Below, piece by piece: positions 1 to 32,311 of a stretch of 64,000 nt of DNA. Location: assembly GCA_003344405.1 (NCBI GenBank), contig NOWV01000010.1, forward strand, positions 744,001 through 808,000, read 5' to 3'. The notes beneath the pieces are model-generated. The model was not told the origin of the DNA, ran no database searches, and was given only the letters and a program-made list of their open reading frames with translations. The stretch's first letter is position 1. The number at the start of each line of letters is the position of its first letter. Position numbers and translations under genes: made by a program. This DNA is from Trichoplax sp. H2 (Eukaryota).

Positions 1-57
1 TAAACATCAAATGAAAGAATGGCATGTAAACCAGACTATCACTTTGGTATTGATTAC

Positions 58-3000
58 CTGGCAACCTTCCAATGGATCGTAGCCGTAGGCTTGTGGAGCA
101 CAAGTATCACAATACTTTCCTTCAACATGTGGTGGACAGTCACAGTTTCCAGTCGAAGCGTCGCATGCACCTCCGGTTTTTGAGCAATTACAAGGCGCAC
201 AACCATCTTTTGTAAAGTTCCAGTAGCCTCTAGCGCATCTACATATAAAGCGGATTCAATTTAATATTGTATTACAATGATTGATGGATAACATGCCTAA
301 AAGGAAAGCTTATACACAATACTGATCAATGTTAGTCATAATATCATAAATTAAAGAAAATATGTTACCTGCTGCAATCCCGTCCTCCGATGCCAGGCTT
401 ACATGGACATTGACCAGAACTGGTATCGCAACTTGATAAAGGGCTAACCGAGCCCACTGGATGACAATCGCAACTTTTGCAACTTGAGTTACTTTCTAGT
501 CCATAATAGCCAACCTATATAAAATTAAATCCTTTACTTAATAAGATATTACAGGAAACAGGTTATAGAGAAAAAAAATTGAGCCTATGGAAGATTCTAA
601 TAACAGTTCTATGATGTGTTTACAAATAAGTATTGAACACCTATGGTGCTTCTTAATACGGTATAAAAATATAGATGCATTAAATGTATAGACAAGAACT
701 ACAATATAGTTGTAATGATATTTATAAGTCTTTTTGCCTATAAAGTCCGATATCTATTACAAAATAAAAGTGTAGCTCAAATCGATCATTAAGCTAGGAA
801 TAAAACTGACTACAGGGTGATTTTCATGATAATGAAACCAAAGCCTTTCATAGATACCTACATACATATTCGACGCCTACTGCATATTTTAATGACGGCG
901 CCCCAGTTGCTACATCATTAAAGTACAGGAACGCCAGCTACAGGATAATTTTAAAGAATAATAATAACTGTAAACTTTATGCTTACGTACTCGACACTTA
1001 TCGCACGTTCGTCCAATAACAAATGGCTTACAAGGACATTCTCCGTTATTTTTGTCACATGCTTGGCTTCTGGATCCGAACTGATTACATCCACATGCTT
1101 ATGTAATATAAATTGCAATTTATTTAGACTATATGTGATTAACTGGTAATGATTGAAATCGTTACAGCAAATAGCCGAAACTCATCGTCAAATAAAATTG
1201 AAAATTTCAATTAAATTATAAAGCCATTTAAAATCATGAAAAATAAATGATAAAAAAGTCAATTTTGTAGAATGAGTTTCAAGGAGCTTCCATAACATGT
1301 GCTTACCTCTGCAGTTTTTTAAAGTGACTGCATCACCATAATAATCATCAGCACATACTTGACATTGATCTCCTGTTGTATTGCCTTGGCATTTTAAGCA
1401 AACACCAGTTGTTGTATTACAATTTCCTTGTAGCGAAAGGTTGATATTACCACTACAATTACAAGGTCGGCAAGTTTGATTAATTTCTTTAGGATTGCCA
1501 TAGTAGCCATCAGAACAACTCTGACAAGTTTGTCCAGTATAACCAGTTGAACAGTTAGTACAAAGTAAATTAACGCCATCAGCTAGTAATTGACATGTTG
1601 GACTAAAGTTATTGCTGGCCACAGATAAAGGACACGCACATTGTTTACAATCATTAGGCGTTCCATACGTAGCATTGCCATAATAACCTTATAAATGATC
1701 ATTTAATTAAAAAACACTTTGAATTAAGATAATAAGATTATTACCTTTAATCAAGTCGCTTACCTAACTGGCATTGTCCACAGTCACTACCTTGGGTGTT
1801 ATGTTGACAGTTATAACAGATACCAGTAATATCGTCGCAGGAATCAGTATGATTGTTACATTTGCATGGTATACATTTGCCATTTAATTGACCATTTTCG
1901 CGACGATATCCAGTTGTACATCTCTATTGAAGACAAGTAATATGATATAAAACGAAAGCGATAGTACAATTGTATCTAATTTTATATTATAATAATCATG
2001 ATTAAAGTCGATGATATGCCATCCAGTAATTTAAACGTAAAAAATTCGGTGTTACTTTAAAATATTGATTTGATTTACTTCACATGATAATCCAGCGTAT
2101 CCAGTAGGACACTGGCATTTTTCTACTTTAACTGTACCATCTGAACTGTAAGTCCCTTCAATTCCTTTCGTCAGAGTGATATTACTAACGTAGGAATTTC
2201 TTTGATTAGAAATAAAACTTAGACGGATAAATACTCCTGTTACATGATTCAATGTCATCATAAATTGTTCACGAGTTACTGGATTGCCAGTGCTGTTGTG
2301 GGTCCATTCAGTCTATTGATTTTGTATACAGTAAAAGCAATATTATATATTGATTGATAATAATAATATGTACCCATTAAAAAGAGAATAGAAATAGTTA
2401 TTAATTCATAGATATTGATACATAGTATCTGAATCATTAATTTTCGTCTTAAATCAGTTGTTACCTCTAATAGTCGTGCTTGAACTTCTCCTAGAACATC
2501 GAATTTTAAAGGTTGTGCTTGATTCCTCAATCTCATGCCATTACTACCAATAATAACTATTTCTGGTCGAAATTCTCGAGTTACTGTCAATGTGGTAACG
2601 TACTGTAATGTATATCGAAAATTTTCACCATACGATGTCAACTAAGATTTAAAAATAGCCAGAAAAATAGTTAAATTAAGAGAGTATAAGCTATGGTGCA
2701 TTGCAACGCTGGTAGTTTAGTGGGTATTTTATAATAAATAAATGTTAAATATTTACAATAAATTAAATATTATTAATTAATTATATGTCACAATCAATCT
2801 TATTAGAAGTACCAAATTTCCGGTATATTCATTAGGAGCTTGCCAGTGGAATGTGTCAGCTCCATCAGTAAGGTTATAGTTAAGTCTATTATGCTGTACT
2901 ATTACTGGAAAAGAATTTTGATTTCTGACATCATAAACTTTCCAGCCGCTTAGAGAGCTGACCTGTAGTAATTATGAAAGAGGAAATAATTAGTATCGTC

Positions 3001-6000
3001 ATCATATCCTTAGCTTATGGTGTCACGTTGGCCATCTAATGTAGCTGCTATATAAATAAAATTATTTTACCTGTTTCTTAACTAAATTTGAACTACTACA
3101 AGTTGATGTCAAGTTGAAGCAATAGCATTTTGTACACCCGACAGGATCATTATTATCCAATCCATATGTACCCGGTTTACATTGACGACAACCACTTCCT
3201 TGAACATTAGGCTATACAATTGATCAAGTTATAGTATGGTAAGAATTGAAAATATTCAATATTAACGATAAATAATACCTTGCATTGGCAATTAGTACTT
3301 TGACAAGTGGAATTAACACTGCCGAATGGATTACATCGACAAGGGCTACATATCGGAAAACCATCAAACCCGATAGCGCATCGATCACATTTGCTTCCTG
3401 TGACATATTGCTTACAGAAACAGTCTCCAGAGTTCTATTTATATATAACATGAGAATTTAAAACATATAGTATATGACTACCTAGAGCTATAGGATGCTC
3501 ACTTAAAAGTAAATCTATTGCAGGGATAATACAACATGGAATAATAAATATCAGTAATGTTGGATTTAAATAAGACTAGAAAGCGTTATTAATAGAGAGA
3601 TTGAATTAAAGTATTGGTATTTTTTGGATAGCTAAATCGATAAAAAAGAAATCGACTTACCATTTGTGGATAACTACGAGCTTCTTCTTCATCTCTTATA
3701 CAAGATCCAGTTGGTCTTCCTGGTTCATCACGTATTCCAGCTGCATTGCATCCACATGCTTGGCATGCATCTATGGCACTGCGTGAAACACCAGTTGGTC
3801 GATAATAGAGATATTTACATCGTTGGCAATTTATGCCTTCAGTATTATGCTGGCAATTTTGACAGATTCCACCACCTTGATAATTACCATGAATATCTAA
3901 ACTTTGATTTTGATCCGCTATCGTCTGATTATATAGACACTGATTGGTATGATTGAAGCATTGACAAGCTGGATTTTTAAAATAAGAATAAAAGGTTTAA
4001 TCGATTCCTGTAATTCAGTCTCAAAGCTACGATAAAATTATTTTCTCGATGCTGATAATAAATCATTCTAAATAATTCTTGGTATTTTAATCGTGATAGA
4101 TTCAAAAATGAGTGTAAATAACAGTTGATTATACTAACGTTCACAAGCATTGGATGAATTTTCAGCAGCTGGTTTCCATGACTTTTGAATAAATGAGTCA
4201 CAACATCTATCACAAGATGGTCCACAAGTATTACGCTCGCATAAGCAACTATAGCTGTCGGTTGTGCTGCTATATTCGCATCGTCTAGCATGTCCATTAC
4301 ACATGCATTCCCCGCTTACTGTAATTCCTTTGATAGAGTAGAAATACTAATAGCAAGATAATGATATCAACGAAGAAATTAGTAATTGCTAAAACTTGTC
4401 CTAAATATTTGTCAATGTCATAATACTGGTAGCATTTTACCCTATCAGTAACTGAGGCATCTTGTATTTCAGGGCTCTGAATATCACCTCCTAGGGTACG
4501 TATTTGCAACAATCTTAATCGTACATATCGTGCAGATAGAAAATTCTATAATGAAGCAATAGGCATTCGATATTAAAAATAAAATGCATATGGGAACAAA
4601 ATTATGGTTATGTGTAATCGACAAGATCTAAACTAATACGGAAAGATAATTTCTTTCCTTATTGTTGACATTGTGAATATTACCCTTAATTCTTCAGTAT
4701 AACCACTAATTCTAGAGCCAGGTCTCCCAGTTAAAAATTGAGCGATTACCTAGTCAAGTAGAATCCTATCGTTTAAAAATGGAATCTAAAAATGCATCCT
4801 GCAATCTTAGTGGGATTAATATTATGCCTAGTTACAAGCTAAGATAGATATTGTTGATATCCTATAAATAAATTTAGTAAAGCTTAACATCTTAAATATA
4901 ATTTAAAGGTAGAAATAATTTAAAATAATAAGTGCAGGAAAGAAATTGATAGCACTATACATTACCTGAGCATTTTGAAATTGATTAGCAACGATGCCGG
5001 TAGTAACGCATATAACTTGGCTATCGCTGGAAAATATACCATCTGGATTAGTTTCAGTCTTGAATTGATCGTAGCACTCTGATTCAGATTGTGCGTAATA
5101 TTGCCAAGCAGTAAAACTTCGCCCATCTAAAGAGCGTTCAAGGACCCATCGAGCAGGTGCAGGAGAATTAGCGGTAGCCAAAATAATGTAGGTTACCCTA
5201 AAAATCTAAGTAAATCAATCATTGCTCATTAATACAATATTATACATAGCGGTACATAATACAGTATAAGATTGATGAAATCATAATTATACGGGTACAG
5301 TAAGCATTCTTTAATTGTATCCTTAACGTGTGTTGCTATGGATATCATAGGTAATTGGGATAGTTATTGATGTTATTCGTTGTTAATTAAAGATACTTAC
5401 GCACATGCACTGTAAACTAAGATCGAAATGAGGACTGATGTCAGTAATTGACTAAATTAACTCTTTAACAAAATGCAAGCATTACTAATTGTCAACTCCG
5501 ATAGTATGGTCGCGTACATTCATATAGACATATATCCATATAGAACGTGCAGTACGTGTATGATGATGAAAATGTGAGGCAATAAAGTGTTCTAACAACT
5601 TCGACATTAGTTTTTTTTAGGCCTAATACAAGTATGCACAACGATACTGTTGTTATCATAGACTTCATGTACTGGATTTTCAGTCTATTGCTACGATGCA
5701 TTATATTCAGTAAATTTTTTGAACGACTATATCATCTTATTCAGTTACATTATAACTATCTGAATATCAAACTGGGTAAAGACTTTTAGTCTAATGGTAT
5801 GATGATGATTAGTCAAGAAATTTGCTATTTTTTTAGCTAGATTGCAGTTTAAATCGAACGTTCATCATTAATAATCGTTAGTATAAGAAAAAATAGCCCG
5901 GGCATGATTGATTTGTATAACGCGTTTATCGAATAAATCAAATATTGTGATTTATCATTTATTTAATTAAAACGTTGATCGTATATCCAAATTTCTTGAG

Positions 6001-6418
6001 AGCATATAGACTTGAGTACAATAAGGAAAATAGAAGAAGGTGGAATTTTTGAAAGACACTGTAGTTCAGGCTAACTTACCTGTTTAAGATCTAAAGTGAT
6101 GGTTACGTTATTATAGTCGAAACCATTTGTTAACGTTGGAGATTGCCACCATTTTTCTGTTCCGTCGATAGCATATCCTATTGGATGGCGTTGATTGCTT
6201 GGAGCATTAGCAGTATTATCGCAAGTTGAACAACTATCTGGCCGATCCAGTAGGCAAAAATTTTCCGGCCTATTAGTACCACATGTTGCGCTAGCAGCTA
6301 TAGAAGAAGACGTTGCTAAATCGCGAACGCTTGCATCTAAAATTTGTCCTTGTACTAACGACGCTGTTAAAGTTACTACTAAAATAATTGAAGAGATAAA
6401 CTGATCTACGGTTTTCAT
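58..6418 (-). CDS. LAMA1/2-like: Laminin alpha chain (alpha1/2-type), 5' part; multi-exon, continues past the left window edge
   Basis: ATG at 6418 gives a signal peptide ([24 protein letters not shown]). LN domain follows ([33 protein letters not shown]), then Cys-rich LE repeats, an L4/LamB domain ([10 protein letters not shown]...[16 protein letters not shown]) and further LE repeats. Introns checked are GT-AG. LN-LE-L4-LE order matches alpha1/2. Confidence 0.93.
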
Positions 6419-8743
6419 ATTCTCTGATAGATGGACTTGTCTCTTATCGATAATCAATCGATAATCTAATAAAGGATAAAGGGAGAAATCTGGTAATTTT
6501 TTCCTTTTTCTCTTATCTTATTTCTAGTTGCTCTCTCCTCGATTGCTATCTTCCGTGAAAATTCAATGACACCTAGTATGCCCCCTCTGTGGCCTAGAAC
6601 TTTAATCTAGCTAATAGCAGTTGCGAAATTGGTAAATTTATATAGAATATGATTATTGAGAAGTTAAAAATATGCTTGAAATTTTACTTTATTATGCAAA
6701 TTTATTGAAAATGGATTGTTTACCTGATTCTTTCCACGTACGAAGTACATTAAGCATTTGACAACGAATCAGACCACTGCAATGTTATTAAATAAATAAT
6801 CAAAATCTAATTGGAGCTTGATCATGACTCTGCTTTCAAATGCTTTCTTTACTCGTAATCTATCACCCTCCATGACACTGTATGAATTCGCTCACCTGTC
6901 TATTAGCACTATAAGTAATCAAAAATAATTCGACTCCAACTGTCTACCAATGATTTCAAGAATGCAAATACTGTATAATAATCAATTTGCTCCCACCCCT
7001 AGACTACTCTACTGTAAGAATAGACTAACTAACTACATCGATTGTACATCGAATAAATAATTCATACCCGGCATGAACTAATAGAAGGTATAATTGCCAG
7101 TAGTCCATGTACTGTGCCTTAGTCTACCATCGATCAATCTTTCTCGAGTTCATCTACCCTATAAATTCATGATACCTTATGTGATTACATTAAGAATTTT
7201 ACTTCAGATCAGCCTATGCGCTTTTTTTATTATTTGCTCAGGCACGATAAGAGAAAAAATTCTTGTTAGAAAATTCTGATAGCATCTAGTAAGAAAGGGC
7301 AATCGATCTACCCAATTTGATGTTATTACTGATTTAGAACAAGAAGCTTCATATTCATTCTGATAAGTTCTTCTAGTTACGGTGAAATAATTTCTATTTT
7401 GTAGCACTACTCGCTAATGTTTTGTATAAAAAGGCAATGGTACATTGTAGAGAAAAACTTAGCTGTTCTATTCAAATCAAGCAACATTTTTATTGACTAA
7501 ATCAGCGAGATAGAGTCAGTTGAAATCAAATCAAATCAAGGTACAGCAAGACAATTTACGACAGTATTAAAATCATAATCATTCTGTTTTCCATTTTTAC
7601 CACAACAGAACTCAACTAGGATGAAATAAAAATGGCCCTACTGGATAAACGATCGGTCAAAGTACTCTAGCGGCTTTGTAGGAATGATTATGGCACCGTA
7701 GGGTCGTCGAAAATAGGCCCCAAGTGACGTTTTGAAATAATTATATATGCACGGGTATAATTAATTAGCTGCGTTGATATTCCATTGAGTCCAGAGCATT
7801 GAACATTCTATCTACCAAGTATGATTCGGCGGCTAACATGTAGCGCTTGCATACACATGCTTGGCGGATATTCCTGCTTAATAGTCACTAGAATATTGAT
7901 ACAGTAAGTATACTATCCCAAATTTGTACCAATTTTAAAATTTTTTTCTTGATGCATATGAATTACTACATGGAACTAGGACATAGTTGCAGTCGACTAC
8001 TAAATCAACGTACTTGTACTCAAGGTACATCATCAAGCAGTGCGCAAAATAAATTCCTCCAACATGGACTACTGTATCATTTCAAATAAACATCGCAGAG
8101 AAGCTTAATGATAACGCCATCAATCGTTTGAATAGCTAACACTAATAACTAATGATCTGACGATAAATCCGGTGATCTATTTCGATTCAAGTGAGCGCGC
8201 TGTTCCTCTTCTGTACTGTACATAGTAATCTACATACGCACTAGGCATTAGTGCCTTGCAAAATAGGACGCATAGCACGTACACTAAACTAGCTCTAGCC
8301 ATTTTGCATAAAATACTTTGCACACTTGATTTAAGTTGTCCTCCTGATCCATTTTTAGATATATCCATATATGTCTAATGTATCATTAATAAGACAGCTA
8401 TAATTAAGAAACGAAGTATATAAGTTAATTTACGCAAAATGGCTATATCGGAGTGAATAAGAAGAAAGCTGCAAAAAGCACGACTGTATAGTACAGTACA
8501 TTAGACCATCCAAACATATTAAAATGATTTCTAATCTTGACTTTCTCTAATCGACAACATTTTAAAAATATATAATATAATCTATTACCGTTGTATACTG
8601 GTCGAAGTATCAGCCGTTGTTTTTATTTAGTACTACTGCAAACTCCCGTCGCTTTGCTGACGGTTTACGATAATGTGCTCATTTAACAGATAGTATTACC
8701 ATTTGATAGACCTGTCAGAGGTTCAGTAACTTTTTACCGTGTA

Positions 8744-14979: not shown

Positions 14980-17900
14980 TTACGAAGATTTAGAATCTCG
15001 ACGAATTTTCCTAAGGCTATAGCGATGTCTTCTGGAACCCTTATGAGCTAATAAATAAATTCATTGAATGAACATTTTATCGTGACAAGATAGTATAACA
15101 TGTATTAAATATATGATACACCTGCTCTAATTCTTATTCAAATACTGTACCTATCCAAGATTTCTCTCCTATTACAGTAACATTACATAAATCACACGTG
15201 AATCGTTGTAATCTGTTACTGATCTCCGAGTAACCTGTATATTTCCTTACTGGTGATTCTGTAGGTGTTTTACCCTATAAAAGAATTAATTCACATTCAG
15301 TAAGTATTGTTTGATAAGCAACAAATGCTTGATTGTAGCGTAACGTCTGTAGTTTATTCAAATAATAGAATGCAAATTGTACTTCGATCAGAGCTTTGGT
15401 AATAGAGACTGATCTCTCCAATATTTCAGATTTCAAACTATTAGGGGTAACATCAAATGAATAAATTGCTGGTACATTATCGGATGGTCCTAAAGATATT
15501 AATTCAAATAAAAAATATTTTTCACTTAAAAAAATTTCATCGATTATAATTATAAACTATAAAGTAATTACCTAACATAATCTTTTTACAGTATATAAGT
15601 ACAGTAGCTACATCATGAACAACTTTGTTATTAAAGTCTAGAATATACTAACTTCTATAAAATCGATTTTCTATCCATTTTCTCTAAAATGAAATTGATA
15701 CGCGAGATTATATTTTCAATTCCAAAAAAATACTTTGTAACGGACCGACTTCGCATAAACACATGTATGCCTGCTTATATTATATCTGTCATATATACGA
15801 ATTTTAAATTATTTTATATAAATTAGAGCATTACCTGAATCTTTGAGTACCGCTTAGTTGCTTGTTTAAACATTAAGATACATTCATCCAATACTTTCCG
15901 GTGGGGATTATTATGGTCTGTTGTTACAATATTTATCACTAACCGTACTTTGATACACATACATATAATCACTACTATATGGTATAGGTAATGCGATTTT
16001 CAACCAATGATATTTTCTTAGAATACAGCTTAAGGTGTGGTCAAAAATTGCAATAAATCGACGCCTTAACAAGCCAACAAACCTTTTGTATCTAAAGAGC
16101 ATTCTTCTTTTTCTATAAGTTGAAGGTATGGCATAAACTGTTTAAAGCCGATACTTTGATATAAGCCTATTTCAGTGTTGACCGGCCTAGCGTAAAGGTA
16201 AAAGTAAAATAGCAATATCAGTTGTAGCGAAATATCTGCCATATAAGTTATCAACACAAATGAACTTGTTACTATACGTATTTGGGATATAGTGTGAAAT
16301 ACTACATATCGTATAATGTAATACAGGACATAGGTCAACATCATTCAAAATAGTAGCACAATGTAAGCTAGGTACTGCTAGTCAGAAAGTGAAATAATCA
16401 ATGAAACCCACACATAACAACTTAATTAATTATAACACCAGCGCTTACGATCTGCTGAATATAATTATCGTTACTTACCTACTGCCCGAATGTACTTGCC
16501 AATCCTGATAAAAAGTATACAGTTCCCGTAGAAGGCCTTTTTCAATCATTTCATCACATCTCGCATCTAATTTTTGATCTAAAACTAACAGGATTGATGA
16601 ATGACAAGCCTCAAGTTTGCTTTCATAGAATCTAGTTTAATATAGAAGTAAGTATCTGAAGAGATCAACATGAATCACAGCTGAATTATAATGCGTATCT
16701 ATACGAAGTTCTGCATATGGCTATCAGACAATACCAGTTAGATCACTTTTAATATTTGCATATTACCATTTTGATCGCATTCCAATAAAAATATAGCAGC
16801 AGATGAAAATCTTAACGGTCCTGAATAGAAACTTCCACCAGGTTGTTGTCGCTGACGTTCTATGTAGCTACTATGTTTGACTTGATTCCTTTTTATAATT
16901 TCTAAACTTCTATTGTTACATTAAGAAGATTCAGCACATACTGTGGTTTACAATATCTTAATAGATTCACCAATATTGGACAGAAAGTTTCTATCAGTTA
17001 TACATCAATGTTCGTACCGTAAAATTTTTCTAGTGTCATTTGGATGTAACATTGCAGCTCTTTCAGGATCTAATAATTTCAATTCTTCGTACGAGTTTGC
17101 AGATTTTTTTTCGGTATCATCAGATAAAGGTTTATTTTGATAATCATTGGCATTAGTTTCATCTGCTGATATATTCTCCTTAAAAGCCAGTTATGGAGAT
17201 CGTACAGTAAACAGTTACTGGTAATATACATAATTCGAGTGTTTATATTACGCGTATTTATCGATTTTCCCGATTGTGAATCTGAAGCATTTTAAATCTA
17301 TTAAATCTAATACTTTCTACTGTGTATATTATGGTATTACATATACAGTATAAGTATATATATATAAACATCTAAAAGCGAAAAGTTACTTCAATAGATC
17401 ACTTACTTCCTTTATTAAATAATCCCACAATAATGCTTCGATATAATAATTAGTACCACCAACCACTATGGGCAATTTTTGACGCTTCATTATATCTTCA
17501 ATATATTAATAGTAAAGGAAATGTCCGCAGGGGTATAAAACTAAGATTAATGATTGCAGTGATCATGAGGTCCATGAAATTAAGAAATGTAATCGTTTAT
17601 ATTATTTCGGTAGCTTGTTCAGTAATATTAATCAAACAATAATAAAACAATTTATCTTAGGCCTATATACAGTGGTATTTAATATAAGAGAGGTCGAGAA
17701 ATTTTACTACAATTGAGAAAGACTACAGTAACAATAACTTTAAAGATAATAACTATGTGTATGATTTCTTCTTTACATGCATAAACAAAAAACTAACATG
17801 TGCACAAGTATAATCAAGTAAAGGATATAATAGGGAGTGTTTTATCCCTAAATGAGACTACTGTAGAATATTCCGTTGGATGAATGTAGTCCATGCAGTG

Positions 17901-19040
17901 ATGATTACATAACATTCTATCTTCTTTGCTAACTTTATTCGTAAGAATATCCAATCCCTGATAAACCTATAAATAAGAGAAAAATTTTGTCACTTGTTAG
18001 GTTGTTGCTGAATATTATTATTAGTAAGTAAAGATAATTTTTAGCGCTTAATTGAGATTTTTAGTTGCCAAACACGGTAGTAGGCTTAGGGTTACTTGAA
18101 GAACTTCTGAAGACATGTAAGCACGTTCTTACATTCGTACTCGTTAACTGTACTGCACCTTAGAGTTGTGTGAAATACTAGTTTACTACATAAGTACAAA
18201 ATGAAAAACTGTAAATGTCACATTCTAAAATAACGTACGTCTTGCAATGGTTTAATACAAGACGATAGAGTGATAGAGTACTTCTTGAATTAGTCGCCAA
18301 GATCTAAACTAGACAGTACAATAAGTACACCTGTTTACTGTAGCCAGATACTCGTCAAGTATCATACGTATATATATATTTATGTCATACACAATTTCAA
18401 CTGTAAATTGAGCACAGCTGCTGGATTACTCAATCCTAGGATATAGTCGTCTGTGGTACAGTATCATCATCTCAAATATCATGTAAACAGCAAAAAAAAG
18501 ATGTAAAAGCTGACCGATTACAGCGATTTAAAAGTAGCTAAGATACAAATGTTTCATATTTTGTTCTAGCAATGGATGTATGCTTTGATTTAAGCCATTA
18601 ATTAACTAATTCGACAAGAGATTTGTTTAGTGCAATACTGTCCAAGTTTGGTGTTATCCGTTTTCAAATGCAATTCCTTTAGACTCAATATACTTGCTAT
18701 TCATTGACATCGACGAATTGTACTCCATACCATTACACTATCATATGGAAGATAGACTAATCAAAGAGTATCAATCTTTTAATTCCAGTATCGTATTCCT
18801 ATAAAGAACTGTTTATTATTTTCAATTCACTATCGATTAATAATCTTTCACTGAGAATAAAATGTACGTAGTTACTATAACCTGCATCGAATCTGCACTA
18901 ATAATCTCTCCATTTAGTTCACAGGCTAGCTTTAAACCCAGAGAGGATTTGCCAGTGCCAGTAGCTCCCATAATGAATATTATAGGCCTACGAGTAGACA
19001 ATATTTTGCATGTATTGCTCATTCCTCTGCGTAATAACAT
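14980..19040 (-). CDS. TRIT1: tRNA isopentenyltransferase (tRNA dimethylallyltransferase)
   Basis: Exon 18882-19040 has the P-loop GATGTGKS...[10 protein letters not shown]. Exon 17829-17966 reads [11 protein letters not shown]; exon 17407-17502 reads [17 protein letters not shown]. Later motifs: [17 protein letters not shown] and a C-terminal C2H2 finger CDLC...HKGSRRH. Stop 14980-14982. Confidence 0.95.
17503..17828 (-). other. U12-type (minor spliceosome) intron in TRIT1
   Basis: Donor ATATCCTTT directly after codon ATT (..KTLPI). Branch-site-like TTCCTTTAC lies 9 nt before the exon starting IEDIMK. An in-frame stop follows the donor before any GT. Confidence 0.88.
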
Positions 19041-22000
19041 CAAGGGACGCAAAATTTCAATTTGCTTCGCGTTGATTTGATTGATAATAATGAATTCTCT
19101 TCGTATTTCAACTCTTCATGAGTCGGATACAAGATGATTTAGTGGTATAATATCGTGTTGAGGAAGCTCAGCAGTCTCGGCTTGACATAGGAAGGAAATT
19201 AGTTCACGACTTCAGTACTCGTATATCTCATTTTGCAGCAGTTGCTTACTGTAAATGTTTCTAGTTACTCTAGACTGAGTTTTACATTGCGCATGTTTCA
19301 CTATGCGTAGTATAGTACTGTATCACCAGTACAATACACTACCGTACAGCAATGTACAATACAAATCTCTGCGACTTTGGATTGGATTTATTGCACCTAT
19401 TCGCTTGAAGAGAATGAATAAAATGGTTGGCTACATAGCGGACAGGAAATAACCCTTTACTAAAATGACTAGGCCGACTATTCTACTGATCATTTGAAGT
19501 ATATGATATGTCTGCAGCCGTACACCGTACTGTCTAAGGTTATCTGAATAAGCGGCTAGGTTAATGTGCACCTTAGTTTGTACCGTGCACAGTTTCAATG
19601 AGACAATATAGGAAAATGGCCAGAATAGGACTGTCATAAAACTATCAGTCCGTTCTGTTAAGTTCTCAAGTTTCCTTTTTTATTTCGTTAACCCAATTTG
19701 AAGTATACTATCACCACATGCATCAACAACATACCATGAAGAAACTATAATGACTGAACTACATCTACCTTCAAATAAACATCGTGCTGTCAGAATGAGA
19801 GTTTTGATAATATTAATTCATATTATATTCAGTCATGGACTTCGAAGTGGAAATTCTCGGTAAGAAGTTGATGCAATATATACTGGAACATAAATACGCT
19901 AACATTTCATCACTGCAAGCATAAAATACTGTACACTTTATAATCACATCCATACTTGAGATTATAAACTGCACGGATATCATGCTAAATATATTTTTTA
20001 TTATCACATAATCCAATGAGTATATTATAATACGTCTCTGAGCTTTCTGCTAAAGCATCAATTTATAGTAATACTTAGGCTAAAATCGTGCTATGCTAAA
20101 GTCTTGCTATATTTGATGAGTACCTATGTATTATATAGTATAACATACATTAATACGATGAAAAAATTTTTCCTTCAAGTGTAAAAATAATACTTCGGCT
20201 AATTTCACCTAACGATTAACAATTCGATTACCTTTACCAGTAACTAAGAAGCAATATCAGTTTAGTTAGGTTAGCATTATCCAATTCGAGATTAGAAACG
20301 CTATCATTATTTATCCAGTATTATCAGACATAAAAAGACCTTGCAGACCAGATAGGAAAAAAAGCTACAGAGTATTCCTCAAACAGGACAATGAAATATA
20401 GCAGCGAAATAGCTGCACCAAAGTATTTCCCTTCTAGAATTAGTGGTCGGTATACGCGTCTAGGTATATATCCGTTTAACTATCTGTATATTAAACTATC
20501 TCGATTTTAATGTTACAGATTAATAACGAAGATTGTAGTGCCGTAAGAAATTTAAATGAAATGAAATGCTCTCTGTCATTTATTAATTTATCCCGTTATA
20601 AGTTCAAAATCGTCATGACGTTCATTTGGTGGTATCATACAGTTAATCTTTATCTTGGTACGTGTAAGCCAACAAATCGTTCTACAACTCTATAGCTAAA
20701 ACTACTGGTATCAAGATCACCTATCTGAAAAGAAGCGTTAGCAATGATTCCATTTTCAATTAATATAAATTTAATTCAGCTCGATATTTCATTCTCTGTA
20801 TCATAAATTAACAAATTCAAAAAGGACTAGGTATTGCGTGATGCTATTTCAAAACTGCAATATATAAATGCTTTTATCATGCAGCTATTCAACCTCAGAT
20901 TGGTGAATTTATCGGAGACTTAAGAATTTTTTAGAGTATAGAAAGAGATACATAGCTTAATACCGATAATAAATTTTCCAGCTTCAGATTACCGGTACAC
21001 ATCAACATCTCTCAATTGCTTATTTTGAAAATTGAAATGAACTTCTAATCTCTTGTAGTAGCTTCAATACTTCGATTCCAGTTAATAATGATGTACTACA
21101 AACTAGTAAGTATTAATAACCCGCATACCCTATACTGTAAGCCTATTCGCATTGCATAAACTTGAAAATGTAAATATATATATCTATATTATTTAAGGAA
21201 GACATAGAATGACGATTTTCCTATGATCACACCATTTTAAGTAAAGCTATTCTCATAAATAAATTAACTATCTATACAAAATCTTACTTAAACTATCCTA
21301 ATAATATCATATGACTCAAAACGAATTTAATGTACGAAACATACGTTTATAGTATGTGCAACAAGTTGAGAACTTAAACCAATAACATGTTATTTTAAGA
21401 GATTATAGAGCTTTGAATTGTTTTTGTCATATTTAGAAAGAGATTATAGGATTGTTGCAATAGCAATACAGTTCATTTAGTTTATCAAGAAGAAAACCTC
21501 TGCAATTAATATGCTTCTATGCTATCACCAGTTTTAAATACATTTAACTTTATAGAGTTACTATTCTCTTAATTCAATATGTATCTTCCTGAGGTCGTAA
21601 TTGCGTCCTAGGCAAATTTTTGGAATCATAAAATTTTTGTTTAATAGATGCTACATCTATGTAAGTGCGCTATTAAAAATTTAACTATCCAAGTTACCAA
21701 TATATCAGTCAAGATAGAATAATTTCTAAAATTTTGTAGCACTACAGACCATTGTTCATATATAAGAAATTATTATGACCTCAACTGTTTCATGTATGCC
21801 GCACAAATAATATATATTTATATATTATCCTCATAGTTTATAATGACATCCTAGTTCAACTTATGTAGCAATGTACGCAGTATAAAAAATTAACGACAGT
21901 TATTATTGTAAGTACCCGTATTTTACCTAGTAAATATATTAAATTAATTTTCTGTTAGTAATATATGTATGCGTGTTACGGATTTGCTTTCCGTAAATAA

Positions 22001-25000
22001 ATGTAGATATTTTTGTATGTTAAGATTAACTTTGATCTAATACCATTGTCAATATTATTATGGATGTAAAACTGTGATGCTAAATCGTTAATGGATTCCC
22101 ATCAACGACGGTGAGGCTTTTAGATGATGATGAGATGTAAGCTGATTACAATAAGAATCAATTGTTTTGTACAGGAAAGCTTGGTAAATGAATAAAAGAG
22201 GATGCATTTATAAATATAGGAGAGATTTAATTGAAGTTACTGAGTAGAGTACGCTATCATCGATAAAGATCACATTAAATAGTTACCAAAAAGCTTCTTG
22301 TCTGTGACTTACTGTTGCTTAAGGTCATACACTAGGTTAGTGAAGTTAGTGACGCTTAGTCGTAGGGATACAGTGCGATAGAAACTAACGGTAGTAAATT
22401 ATGGAGTTAAATATCGCAAACGTGGTTGTAACAATGCGATATTAAAATGCTATCCTTGCTGTTTTATAATGATATAACCTCGTTCAACTTGTGCAGAGGC
22501 TTGAGAAACATTAAAGATTGACAGCAGTTATTACTGTATGAACGTACGTAACCTAAAAATCTATTTAATCGATTTCAGTAATATAGCTTCTTTGTTATCG
22601 AGCTAGCAATCTTAGTTTTCAAGATATTTTATCTCGAGATGATTTTTGAGTTGTCAAATAGCTAATCCAGAAACTATCCACATGCTAAAGACTGCTTACA
22701 TACGTACAGTATACTCTAAGTTTACGAAGCAAATGATCACGTAATCGTTACACGACTCCATTTTTGAATCATTTATTTGGCCTTTCATCTACTCAACCAT
22801 CACACGAAGAATGAAGAACTGTCTACGTAATTTTTTCAGTAAGATGAACTGATCCATACGTTTTATAAAAGCTATCATATATTCTAACTTGTGAAATACT
22901 TGTAGATATAAGAATCACCCGGGTTAATATATCGAATGTCTTATTTTTTAAACTAGTTAAGAATTATCCATTTTGTGTATACGAGTAAAATTTGAAGACT
23001 TTCTCTATTAATCTGATAAGACGCGAGTAGCGCAATCACATAATCAATAAAGATTACTTAGTATACGATATCAGGGTTACAGATTCTAATAAAGGATACA
23101 ATGATAATATCGATTTCATGATTAACATATGAAACACTAATCTAATGAATTATTACAATCATACCGTACTTTTACAAAGATTACTAGCAAATGTTGGCGT
23201 GACACAACACTGCTAAATTTACAACTTGGCATGCCGATCGCTTTTCTTTGATTCTCTAACAGTATAATTGTATTGCGGCATATTATTATTGGCAATCTAC
23301 CATATGCGCATTAAGTTATTAAATCTTGATGGGAGGATCGTCCCATATTTTTCAATGAAAACCATAAAATGTTAGAAACATTCCGATATATTATGGTGAT
23401 GACATAACGTTGAAATCTCAGTAAGATATTAAACGCAAGGATTAGCGTATTTACTGTATAAGGACTAAATTATATTTATTCGTCGAATGATTTTAATTAT
23501 GCTGTTATTCATCGCCTTATTAGATTTAATTTATCAGAAGGCGTGCCGCTTATCTTACATCAAGTGTCAATATTTTGTAGAATTCTTGAATCAGTTGACG
23601 TTTATACATCGAGATAAATATTAACAGTATAGATGATTTGACTGCAAATAGAACTTTGTAAGGTTATTTTCTATTAGTAAATTACGATAAAAGTGATATT
23701 ACAGCCACGAAATCTCATCGGCATTTTTGGATAAAGCTGTCTTTATGTCATACGGTATAATACGCAACATTACTTCATTCCTGTATTGAGTAACAAATAA
23801 ATAAACAAAAAAATAAATAAATATGCCGAATCCAATGGGAACGAAAAAAAGATAAAATTAACATTTGTTTATTATCTAGTCTTCTACCATCAGGTAAACA
23901 ATCAGATCTATGTCCGTCACATACGCCAGTAACTATAATCAGATTAATACTCTTTCACAGCACCATTAGCTTTACTATCAGCCCAAAATTATTATTGATA
24001 CTATTTGGTTAGGACAATAAATAACAATGAAATAAGTACTTGATGTTAATGAATGAAAGCGTCAATAGTTACCGTATGCGCTCCTACTTGACATCTAATA
24101 GAATGATACCGTCTGTCGTCTGCTGTGACTTAAAACTTTATTATATATGCATGATTGAGATATTTCAAATGAAAGAGAAATAAACTGAACATGTAGAAAA
24201 ACACTTACGGCTCGCGGAATTACCAACTGCTCGTTGTATGATAATCGTACGCTTGCTATACTTAATTAATTAGTAATCGCTTACCTGATTATAATTGAAA
24301 ATATTAGAATATAGTATTTCAAGAATCATGCTGTAACTGTTCATTGATATATTTTAACATTGACTTTCTTCTACTATATGCGAGAAGTACCGGATAACTA
24401 AAGGTCAAAAATATGCTTTAGTGGAGAAGTGACAGTAGCATTAACATACGCTACTTTACCAATCTGCAACAACCACCCTAGCAAAAACAGACCTACAAAT
24501 AATTGTAATATAGCTATAAATTAATATAATATTCCCAAAATTCCTGTTTTAAAGTCGTAAGCTGGCAAGCGCATTCTAAGATTATTGCTCGAATGATTTA
24601 ATTTCAATTTATCTAGTTTAAGTTTAAATTTAAAATTTTAATTTATTTTTTGTAGAATATCGTAATTTTACTGGATGTTATTATCCACTAAGCACATTTG
24701 TAGTCATGATAACGCTAATTTACATTACGTATAAGTACATACAGTATCATCCATGCAAACATACATCACTCAGGTTATATCGCTATAACAAGCAAGCACA
24801 GCCCATATGGAACATGGTAAAACCTCAATTTAAATCACCACTGTATATAATAGTCATATCTAGAGCTAATATAGCGAAAGTTATTGAAAATATTTTATTG
24901 AACATTTAATGTTCTTATACAGACAGAATGCGACGTTCATTAGAACTAACGGGAACTAGCTCTAAGAGCTTTATAATTATCTGTATACATAAAATATATG

Positions 25001-30646: not shown

Positions 30647-31236
30647 GTACATATCACTTTACTAGAACTGTAATCTGCTATGGCTACAATTTGATGTTAG
30701 AAGATTTTAACATTTTTACGCACAGAAAGTAATTGGAATATGTAGTATAAGTGAAATTAAAGTACGGTAGGTGGATTTGTTAATACTAACATCCTTGCAA
30801 TACAAACAGTATTATACTATGATATACGCCTAAATGATATAATTAGCAATTAGTACGACGCCGTATAGTCCAAAGGTCATTAGAGAACGATAAAGATGTC
30901 GCCTCTACTAGGCTAAAAGGAATGTTTTAACTTGGAAAATTTGGACAGGAAATTTTAAGTGCCCGCTCAAATTTAGTAAATAGTAAAATATTGCCTATTT
31001 TAAAACACGCACATGAGTATGTTGAGCTGATGCTGGCAAACAAATAGTAATCCTATAAATACTTTGAGTGTACAGCCTTCGATTGTAGGTGTTAAGAGAT
31101 TATCCCGTATGGTTATACTTTTTTAGATGTATTATACACTTGTTGCAATTGTCTATTAGAAATTTTCACTTTCTGGCAATCTTCCGAAAAAGTGTTAACT
31201 TCTATTTTAATTTTTTATGTATATAGATCTATCAAG

Positions 31237-32311
31237 ATGGCAGTTCATGCGGAAGCCTTTTCAAATAAGTTAGATTTTGAGCCTTACGGCTCTTACTACA
31301 TGGGTGAAGATAGTGAAGATGATAACATATGGAGTTGTCTTGACATCATGCCAACTCCACCATTGTCACCGGCTCGCCAGCAATACATAACTGATACTTC
31401 ATCAAATTATCTCGCTGACAAATTGTTGCAAGTAACCGAAAATTTAGATTTCGACAATGCCTTGATTGACATGGTAGGGGATACCAATAGTATTTTCAAT
31501 GGTGGTTCGAAACTTCGATCCAGCTTAATCCAGGATTGCATGTGGAATGCTGGCATTTGTGAAACCGACAAGAAGAATTTGGTTAACACGAACGTTAGTG
31601 CTTTTGATACGCCTTGTGCAACGCCACCGCGAGCAGAAGAGTTTATTTCGACTAGTGACTGTGTCGATCCCATCGCTGTATTTCCTTACACTCTTAGCGA
31701 TCAAGGACAACAACAATTTGTAGAAGCTCAGTCCGATTCAGGTATTGCTTTGAAATAATAGTATGTAACTCAAAAATTTTGTAGTATAGTTAGCCTTGTT
31801 TTTTATACTATTTTGATTGTCTGACGAGTTTACACTGTTTTTTTTTTTAGAAGAGGAAATTGATGTAGTAACAGTAGAAAAACCGAATAAACGAAAGCTA
31901 AGTTCCATTGAATTACCTCAGCAGCACAAAGTGACCGAAGATTTACAAAGCCCTACGAAACGTGCGAAATCTCCGCAAATAAGTACCAAAGGCAAAGAAG
32001 CTTGTAGCCCGAAGGGAGGGTTATCCGTAAAGCCGGATATTGATAATGATGTTAAACGTGCAACTCATAATGTTTTAGAGAGGAAGAGACGCAATGATCT
32101 GAGGTATAGTTTCCAGACGCTCCGTGATCAGATACCGGACTTGGAAGATAACGAACGTGCACCGAAAGTTAACATTTTAAAGAAGTCAACAGAGTACATC
32201 AAGTTCTTGAAAGAGGAGGAGAGTAAGCTAATCTCGATGAAAGAAACGGAAAGAGAAAGAAGGAAAGCTCTCTTGGCCAAAATCGACATTTTAAAGAGCA
32301 AAAGAAATTAG
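31237..32311 (+). CDS. MYC: Myc bHLH-LZ transcription factor; coding exons 31237-31741 and 31851-32311 (321 aa)
   Basis: MBI IWSCLDIMPTPPLSP, MBII LIQDCMWNAG, MBIII SDCVDPIAVFPY, acidic SDS|EEEIDVV split by the conserved intron, bHLH KRATHNVLERKRRNDLRYSF...APKVNILKKS plus zipper. Confidence 0.97.

Follow-up and report, generated by a model that had tools for sequence, protein, structure and literature searches.

The window analysed here, a stretch of 64,000 nucleotides of the Trichoplax sp. H2 genome, carries on its minus strand the gene for the tRNA dimethylallyltransferase TRIT1, whose neighbours, recognized by eye from the list of open reading frames, are a laminin-like gene (1-6517, minus strand) and a Myc-like gene (31096-32311, plus strand). 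The features on which the present analysis centres are the following:

14980..19040, minus strand: TRIT1 coding span, 12 exons, open frame of 439 aa
18882..19040, minus strand: coding part of TRIT1 exon 1 with the P-loop; in-frame ATGs at 19040 and 19022
17829..17966, minus strand: TRIT1 exon 2, 46 codons, ending ...KTLPI
17503..17828, minus strand: TRIT1 intron 2, 326 nt, phase 0, assigned to the A-type U12 class, AT-AT ends
17820..17828, minus strand: U12-type 5' splice site ATATCCTTT, perfect against the consensus RTATCCTTT (PMC1635337, in excerpt)
17512..17520, minus strand: U12-type branch site TTCCTTTAC, one mismatch to TTCCTTRAY (PMC1635337, in excerpt)
17503..17504, minus strand: non-canonical 3' terminal AT, in the middle of an ATATAT run
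17407..17502, minus strand: TRIT1 exon 3, 32 codons, IEDI...VVGGTNYY, first codons ATT GAA GAT

TRIT1 is present as a single copy in the genome, and its exons, used as queries, are 100% identical to records labelled Trichoplax sp. H2 and T. adhaerens. The gene contains 11 introns, ten of them GT-AG and one AT-AT, and all 11 joints occur in a single contig of 1670 bases from sequencing run X18; spliced along the observed joints, the gene encodes 439 aa, the frame opening with the ATG at 19040 and closing with the TAA at 14980, and its product is approximately 41% identical over its full length to three of the four animal TRIT1 proteins tested, the fourth giving a piecewise alignment. The two minus-strand ATGs at 19040 and 19022 are in frame, lie six codons apart and both precede the P-loop, an arrangement reminiscent of yeast Mod5, in which dual starts send the enzyme to mitochondria or to the cytosol. 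Towards the 5' side of the gene (window 19058-19200), run X19 has a contig with a joint on the opposite strand, probably a library artefact.

Intron 2 begins with ATATCCTTTAC at 17828, its last bases are ...TATTAATAT at 17503, and its 3' end is devoid of a pyrimidine tract. The presumed branch-point adenosine is A17513, which would place it at -11 from the intron end, with exon 3 starting nine bases past the branch site. The donor motif has a chance expectation of 7e-5 per given site and the branch motif of 5e-4 per 12-base window. Other U12-like donors occur in the window at 23099, 26843, 28848, 57201 and 63075; the three examined, 23099, 57201 and 63075, apparently lie off coding exon ends. 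Donor, branch site and the span 17503..17828 had been proposed in the initial annotation, and both coordinates and motifs are exact in the sequence; its claim that reading through the donor meets a stop after four codons is likewise accurate, the read-through being I-S-F-T-stop. A canonical AT-AC U12 intron, which that annotation regarded as apparently excluded, is indeed rejected, given that cutting after the AC at 17523 would put exon 3 out of frame, the AC at 17512 yields Tyr followed by TAA, and neither matches the joint seen in RNA. In-frame acceptors (A- and G-led) between 17530 and 17481 are AA 17506, which adds a Tyr, AT 17503, AA 17497, AT 17494, TG 17488 and AG 17485, which costs six residues. 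The initial annotation left a choice between AT-AT and AT-AA with one added Tyr, a list that missed AA 17497, AT 17494 and AG 17485. Within the ATATAT run at the acceptor, AT occurs three times in tandem, at -9, at -11 and at -13, the first and last of these being out of frame.

Contigs of four of the 24 runs listed (X19, X18, X3 and X17) were compared with the window. Two of these four have a contig that lacks exactly 326 bases with ends AT..AT: X19, recorded as RNA, comes from study P4 and carries organism label A, and X18, RNA by guess, comes from study P7 and carries organism label B. Contigs of two independent studies thus make the 17829/17502 junction that the initial annotation had put up for verification, whereas X17 and X3 contain no joints anywhere and X17 is uninformative. 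Intron 2 is precisely removed, giving an in-frame TRIT1 mRNA. Of the two options put forward earlier, these 326-base joints favour AT-AT, and AT-AA is not the assembled product. The evidence consists of assembled contigs, one per run, in which rare isoforms are dropped and rare acceptors are therefore invisible; as the main product, AT-AG (17496, out of frame, or 17485, in frame), AA 17497 and AT 17494 are excluded by the RNA contigs. That the main product should instead arise through AA 17506, AG 17485 or some other acceptor is very improbable: AA 17506 and AG 17485 do leave the frame open, and contigs lose rare variants, but both joint-bearing runs skip 326 and not 323 or 344 bases, and the spacing without insertion given by the 17503 acceptor, which restores the LPI-IEDI sequence of homologues as had been proposed, is shared by 105 of the 115 homologues with the GGTxYY motif among the best 120 of 569.

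Four registers of the joint yield an identical mRNA, two of them TA-TA and two AT-AT (17503-17828 and 17501-17826), and AC, AG or AA ends are absent from all four. Both non-TA registers being AT-AT, the intron belongs to the AT-AT subtype as defined by its terminal pair; register 17503-17828 is chosen solely because its donor follows the U12 consensus, since the RNA cannot separate it from 17501-17826. A rival explanation is that the same mRNA arises from an intron cut two bases further along, at 17501-17826, or that the major spliceosome acts on a U2-type intron with A...T ends. This explanation, to which a small probability is assigned, draws on the equivalence of the four registers, on the poor pairing between the donor and the genome's divergent U6atac (see below) and on the existence of U2-type AT-AC introns (PMC1557818), but the slid donor, ATCCTTT, matches neither consensus, and use of the major spliceosome sits badly with a perfect U12 donor, a branch site at -11, the missing terminal pyrimidine tract and a human orthologue that is U12-type and CENATAC-sensitive (PMC8280824, in excerpt). 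Assignment to the U2-type AT-AC ("type II") introns was likewise rejected, as the donor is of U12 consensus and the 3' end reads TATTAATAT.

An assembly error or private variant, with a true last base C and an ordinary AT-AC intron, was rejected as the least probable of the alternatives, even though the human orthologue (PMC8280824, in excerpt) and the metagenome locus L038 are AT-AC. Run X3, from another study (P2) and with another species label, is taken as DNA because it has no joints; one of its contigs extends across 15691-19300 with nine letters differing from the window, none of them between 17289 and 19024 and thus none at 17503, and X3 shows the same base at 17503 despite 14 listed differences overall, so that an independent contig agrees at the base for which the initial annotation had suggested verification in raw reads. 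Furthermore, an unspliced X18 contig (17485-17791) is identical to the window. The same contig (depth 3.6 versus 21.6) raised the idea of regulated retention of intron 2, which is not claimed, because similar contigs exist for intron 1, the contig extends into exon 3 by no more than 18 bases and the depth of contigs cannot serve to rank the forms.

Automated annotation had been expected to mis-model this junction, and both public Trichoplax TRIT1 models do break at intron 2, leaving fragments of 103 and 298 aa. The former (P0004) runs into intron 2 and terminates ...LPIISFT, and the latter (P0005) starts inside exon 3. The 298-aa T. adhaerens model also omits the short exons 8 and 9 (window 15684-15917), which leaves a 38-residue gap; these exons are spliced in according to X18. 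Read-through of the ISF/ISL kind is found in 16 of 120 public TRIT1 models (the best 120 of 569 homologues), mostly from fish; the 16, with the pattern ..ALxLISF.., are P0009, P0019, P0022, P0026, P0033 and 11 others. Judged from these protein sequences, read-through into the A-type donor of TRIT1 is a recurrent annotation error. The placozoan TRIT1 model is repaired here to 439 aa and the matching annotation trap is flagged in fish.

The orthologous intron has been catalogued in mammals. Human TRIT1 intron 2 (chr1:39854069-39857276) is U12-type with AT-AC ends, interrupts the gene at the same L|IE junction and is retained when CENATAC is depleted as well as in mutants of ZRSR2 (PMC8280824, in excerpt), an outcome in keeping with the initial annotation, which had pointed to the orthologue as a check; mouse TRIT1 also has a U12-type AT-AC intron at that position (PMC6717393, in excerpt). 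The human and mouse introns resemble that of Trichoplax in the L|IE junction, phase 0, ATATCCTT donor, U12 branch site and A-type character, while the human intron differs in its last base (C versus T), in its length (3208 versus 326 nt) and in the position of its branch A, which judging from the acceptor sequence is about -8 rather than -11.

A metagenome scan for TRIT1 retained 80 of 165 confirmed loci, of which 79 were examined after L049 was dropped as a partial match; many of these loci are near-duplicates of one another. An intron is present at the TRIT1 junction in 46 of the 79, with 44 AG and 2 AC ends, while the remaining 33 lack it there or received no call, and an AT-ending intron at this junction occurs in none of the 79. 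L038 contains a complete AT-AC intron, and GTATCCTT donors are found at the junction in L050, L054, L058, L078 and L082. In 14 U12-like orthologous acceptors the branch A falls between -10 and -15, half of them (7/14) at -11. An ordinary GT-AG (U2-like) intron is seen in L009, L011, L014-L020, L036, L039, L042, L068 and other metagenome contigs, and an apparent U12-to-U2 conversion of the TRIT1 intron may accordingly be read from many animal contigs. The mixture of intron types across orthologues suggests that the TRIT1 position is old and that its type changed repeatedly. Derivation of the AT-AT intron from an AT-AC ancestor would be the simplest reading, the direction being taken from the orthologues.

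The genome also encodes components of the minor spliceosome. U11, U12, U4atac and U6atac genes each score above the Rfam gathering threshold, and CENATAC (PF14968) exceeds its Pfam cut-off. The 5' end of U11 forms six pairs with the intron 2 donor and U12 pairs with the branch site in register, yet snRNA duplex energies do not set intron 2 apart from GT-AG introns: U12 with the 3' end gives -9.3 for intron 2 against -9.5 for the GT-AG intron 1, and for U11 with the donor the value is -5.2, compared with -6.7 at a site of intron 8 that is out of register. The sole full-length U6atac is a "CC variant", with GCC in the donor-pairing box where the Rfam consensus is AAG, and its pairing with the intron 2 donor is poor. 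This gene lies within locus L003 (G000:C503:8305-9498), with five 5'-truncated copies in tandem directly downstream. The altered box was discarded as a novelty because it is already published: the CC variant is known from Trichoplax, cnidarians, a sponge and others, and is left unexplained in the available text (PMC2396436, in excerpt). The 5' end found here is identical to the one given in that paper for T. adhaerens, and the excerpted text of that paper draws no tie to intron 3' ends; a link between the CC variant and odd 3' ends is speculation on our part.

Taken together, these data favour, with a probability of roughly 0.92, the interpretation that TRIT1 intron 2 is an old U12-dependent intron of the A-type in which T has taken the place of the usual C as the last base, in line with the U12 type originally proposed from the donor and branch site. 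Its splicing would depend on the minor spliceosome; the human orthologue is CENATAC- and ZRSR2-sensitive. From established minor-spliceosome biology, U11 and U12 would bind donor and branch site jointly, branching would take place at A17513, and the place of the 3' cut would be determined for the most part by how far it lies from the branch point (-11), with A as the second-last base. An A-type active site would accept any last base, a tolerance that would make a C-to-T change survivable. The AT at -9 and the AT at -13, both out of frame, may be disfavoured by this ruler, or their products may be destroyed by nonsense-mediated decay. With its three tandem AT sites, the TRIT1 acceptor is a naturally occurring case for testing how distance to the branch point is gauged by the minor spliceosome.

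It may be asked whether TRIT1 is alone in the genome in this respect. Five genome patterns in which A-type donor and branch site were fixed and the 3' end ignored returned 66 loci against 77 in reversed controls; with hits below the controls, most loci are due to chance and the counts alone are uninformative. By judgement, 47 of the 66 were set aside as not intron-like, a group that includes exonic matches (L114, L153), tandem repeats (L130-L132), doubtful cases (L088, L089) and L107, which was passed over. Ten loci are situated at the end of an exon in an identifiable gene; nine of these genes are recognized by a Pfam or PDB match within the locus, and one, L126, we take to be exportin-7-like. 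PDB searches gave nothing useful for L120, L126 and the downstream exon of L136. The in-frame end is AC in four of the ten (L119, L133, L137, L138), and AA in five, namely L120 (helicase), L122 (SHMT), L123 (kinesin), L126 and L143 (two-pore channel), where it is the sole in-frame acceptor near the branch site. The tenth, L136 (G000:C685, donor at locus 1642, minus strand), is an A-type minor intron of an importin-9-like gene for which AT, at branch -11, is the required end. For five of these introns the junction is tied to homology: L122 has a Pfam SHMT match on either side, L143 is anchored by two-pore channel residues 627 and 629, and L136, L138 and L133 share exon edges with the human minor introns of IPO9 (AT-AC), AP2A1 (AT-AC) and SLC35B4 (GT-AG). 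The SLC35B4-like locus L133 (G000:C386) is AT-AC where the human intron is GT-AG U12, an A/G subtype switch, and its matched branch motif is unusually distant, at -24.

An in-frame A-led acceptor lies at branch -11 or -12 in nine of the ten introns (rough chance 1e-5, a figure that is partly circular), even where out-of-frame alternatives are close by, namely AC at -13 in L123 and AG at -13 in L120 and at -12 in L126. AA or AT ends make up 6/10 against a baseline of about 12% in catalogued animals (p = 4e-4), or 5/9 without L126 (p = 0.002), the baseline coming from annotations biased against odd ends, with a similar human value of 20/189 (PMC1557818). Eight further candidates lean towards AC and, when included, give 6-8 of 18 (p = 0.015 to 0.0006). 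The last pattern batch, meant as a prospective test, contained 0/13 gene-identified introns, and its plausible introns comprised three AC and one probably non-AC end. That these introns are predicted from genomic sequence and that the real ones were picked by judgement both count against a wider pattern. We would give even odds that between one third and one half of placozoan A-type minor introns end in AA or AT under a strict ruler of 11-12 bases that holds despite out-of-frame AC or AG one base off. Such a loosened last base may be tied to the divergent CC-variant U6atac, or may simply reflect an AT-rich genome. If true, such introns would escape gene models, so that too few placozoan minor introns would be catalogued and the shift would go unnoticed; an early-branching animal would show AT-AC introns to be able to do without their terminal C across a whole lineage, and counts of minor-intron loss based on annotation would need revision there. 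This possible lineage-wide loosening is the part worth following beyond the TRIT1 intron.

As regards the subtype itself, TRIT1 intron 2 belongs to a rare but known class, and the case is new for TRIT1 and placozoans within the literature searched, where no report of a TRIT1 AT-AT intron or of placozoan intron ends was found, the IAOD, MIDB and intronIC tables lying outside that scope; the intron is also not named in the available text of PMC7507305, PMC2655684, PMC6259924, PMC11347168 and PMC7367187. Six AT-AT minor introns have been counted in human and six in mouse (PMC1557818 Table 2), and conserved animal minor introns comprise 701 AT-AT (0.95%), 16044 AT-AC, 823 AT-AA and 658 AT-AG cases (PMC10639083 Table S1), in a study whose species list includes both Trichoplax genomes. 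It has been described that A-type introns tolerate any last base (PMC1635337, PMC1557818 and PMC8280824, in excerpt) and that AT-AN pairs are splicing-competent for the U12 machinery (PMC1557818, in excerpt, citing Dietrich 2005), and switches between AT-AC and AT-AT are known among orthologues of ERCC5, GPAA1 and SLC9A8 (PMC1557818). The AT-AT introns of human ERCC5 and IK and of mouse Gpaa1 and Slc9a8 (PMC1557818 Table 3) have the same termini as Trichoplax TRIT1 intron 2 together with the same donor and branch signals, and the AT-AT introns described in that work share with it both the switching between AT-AC and AT-AT and the tendency to be mis-mapped.
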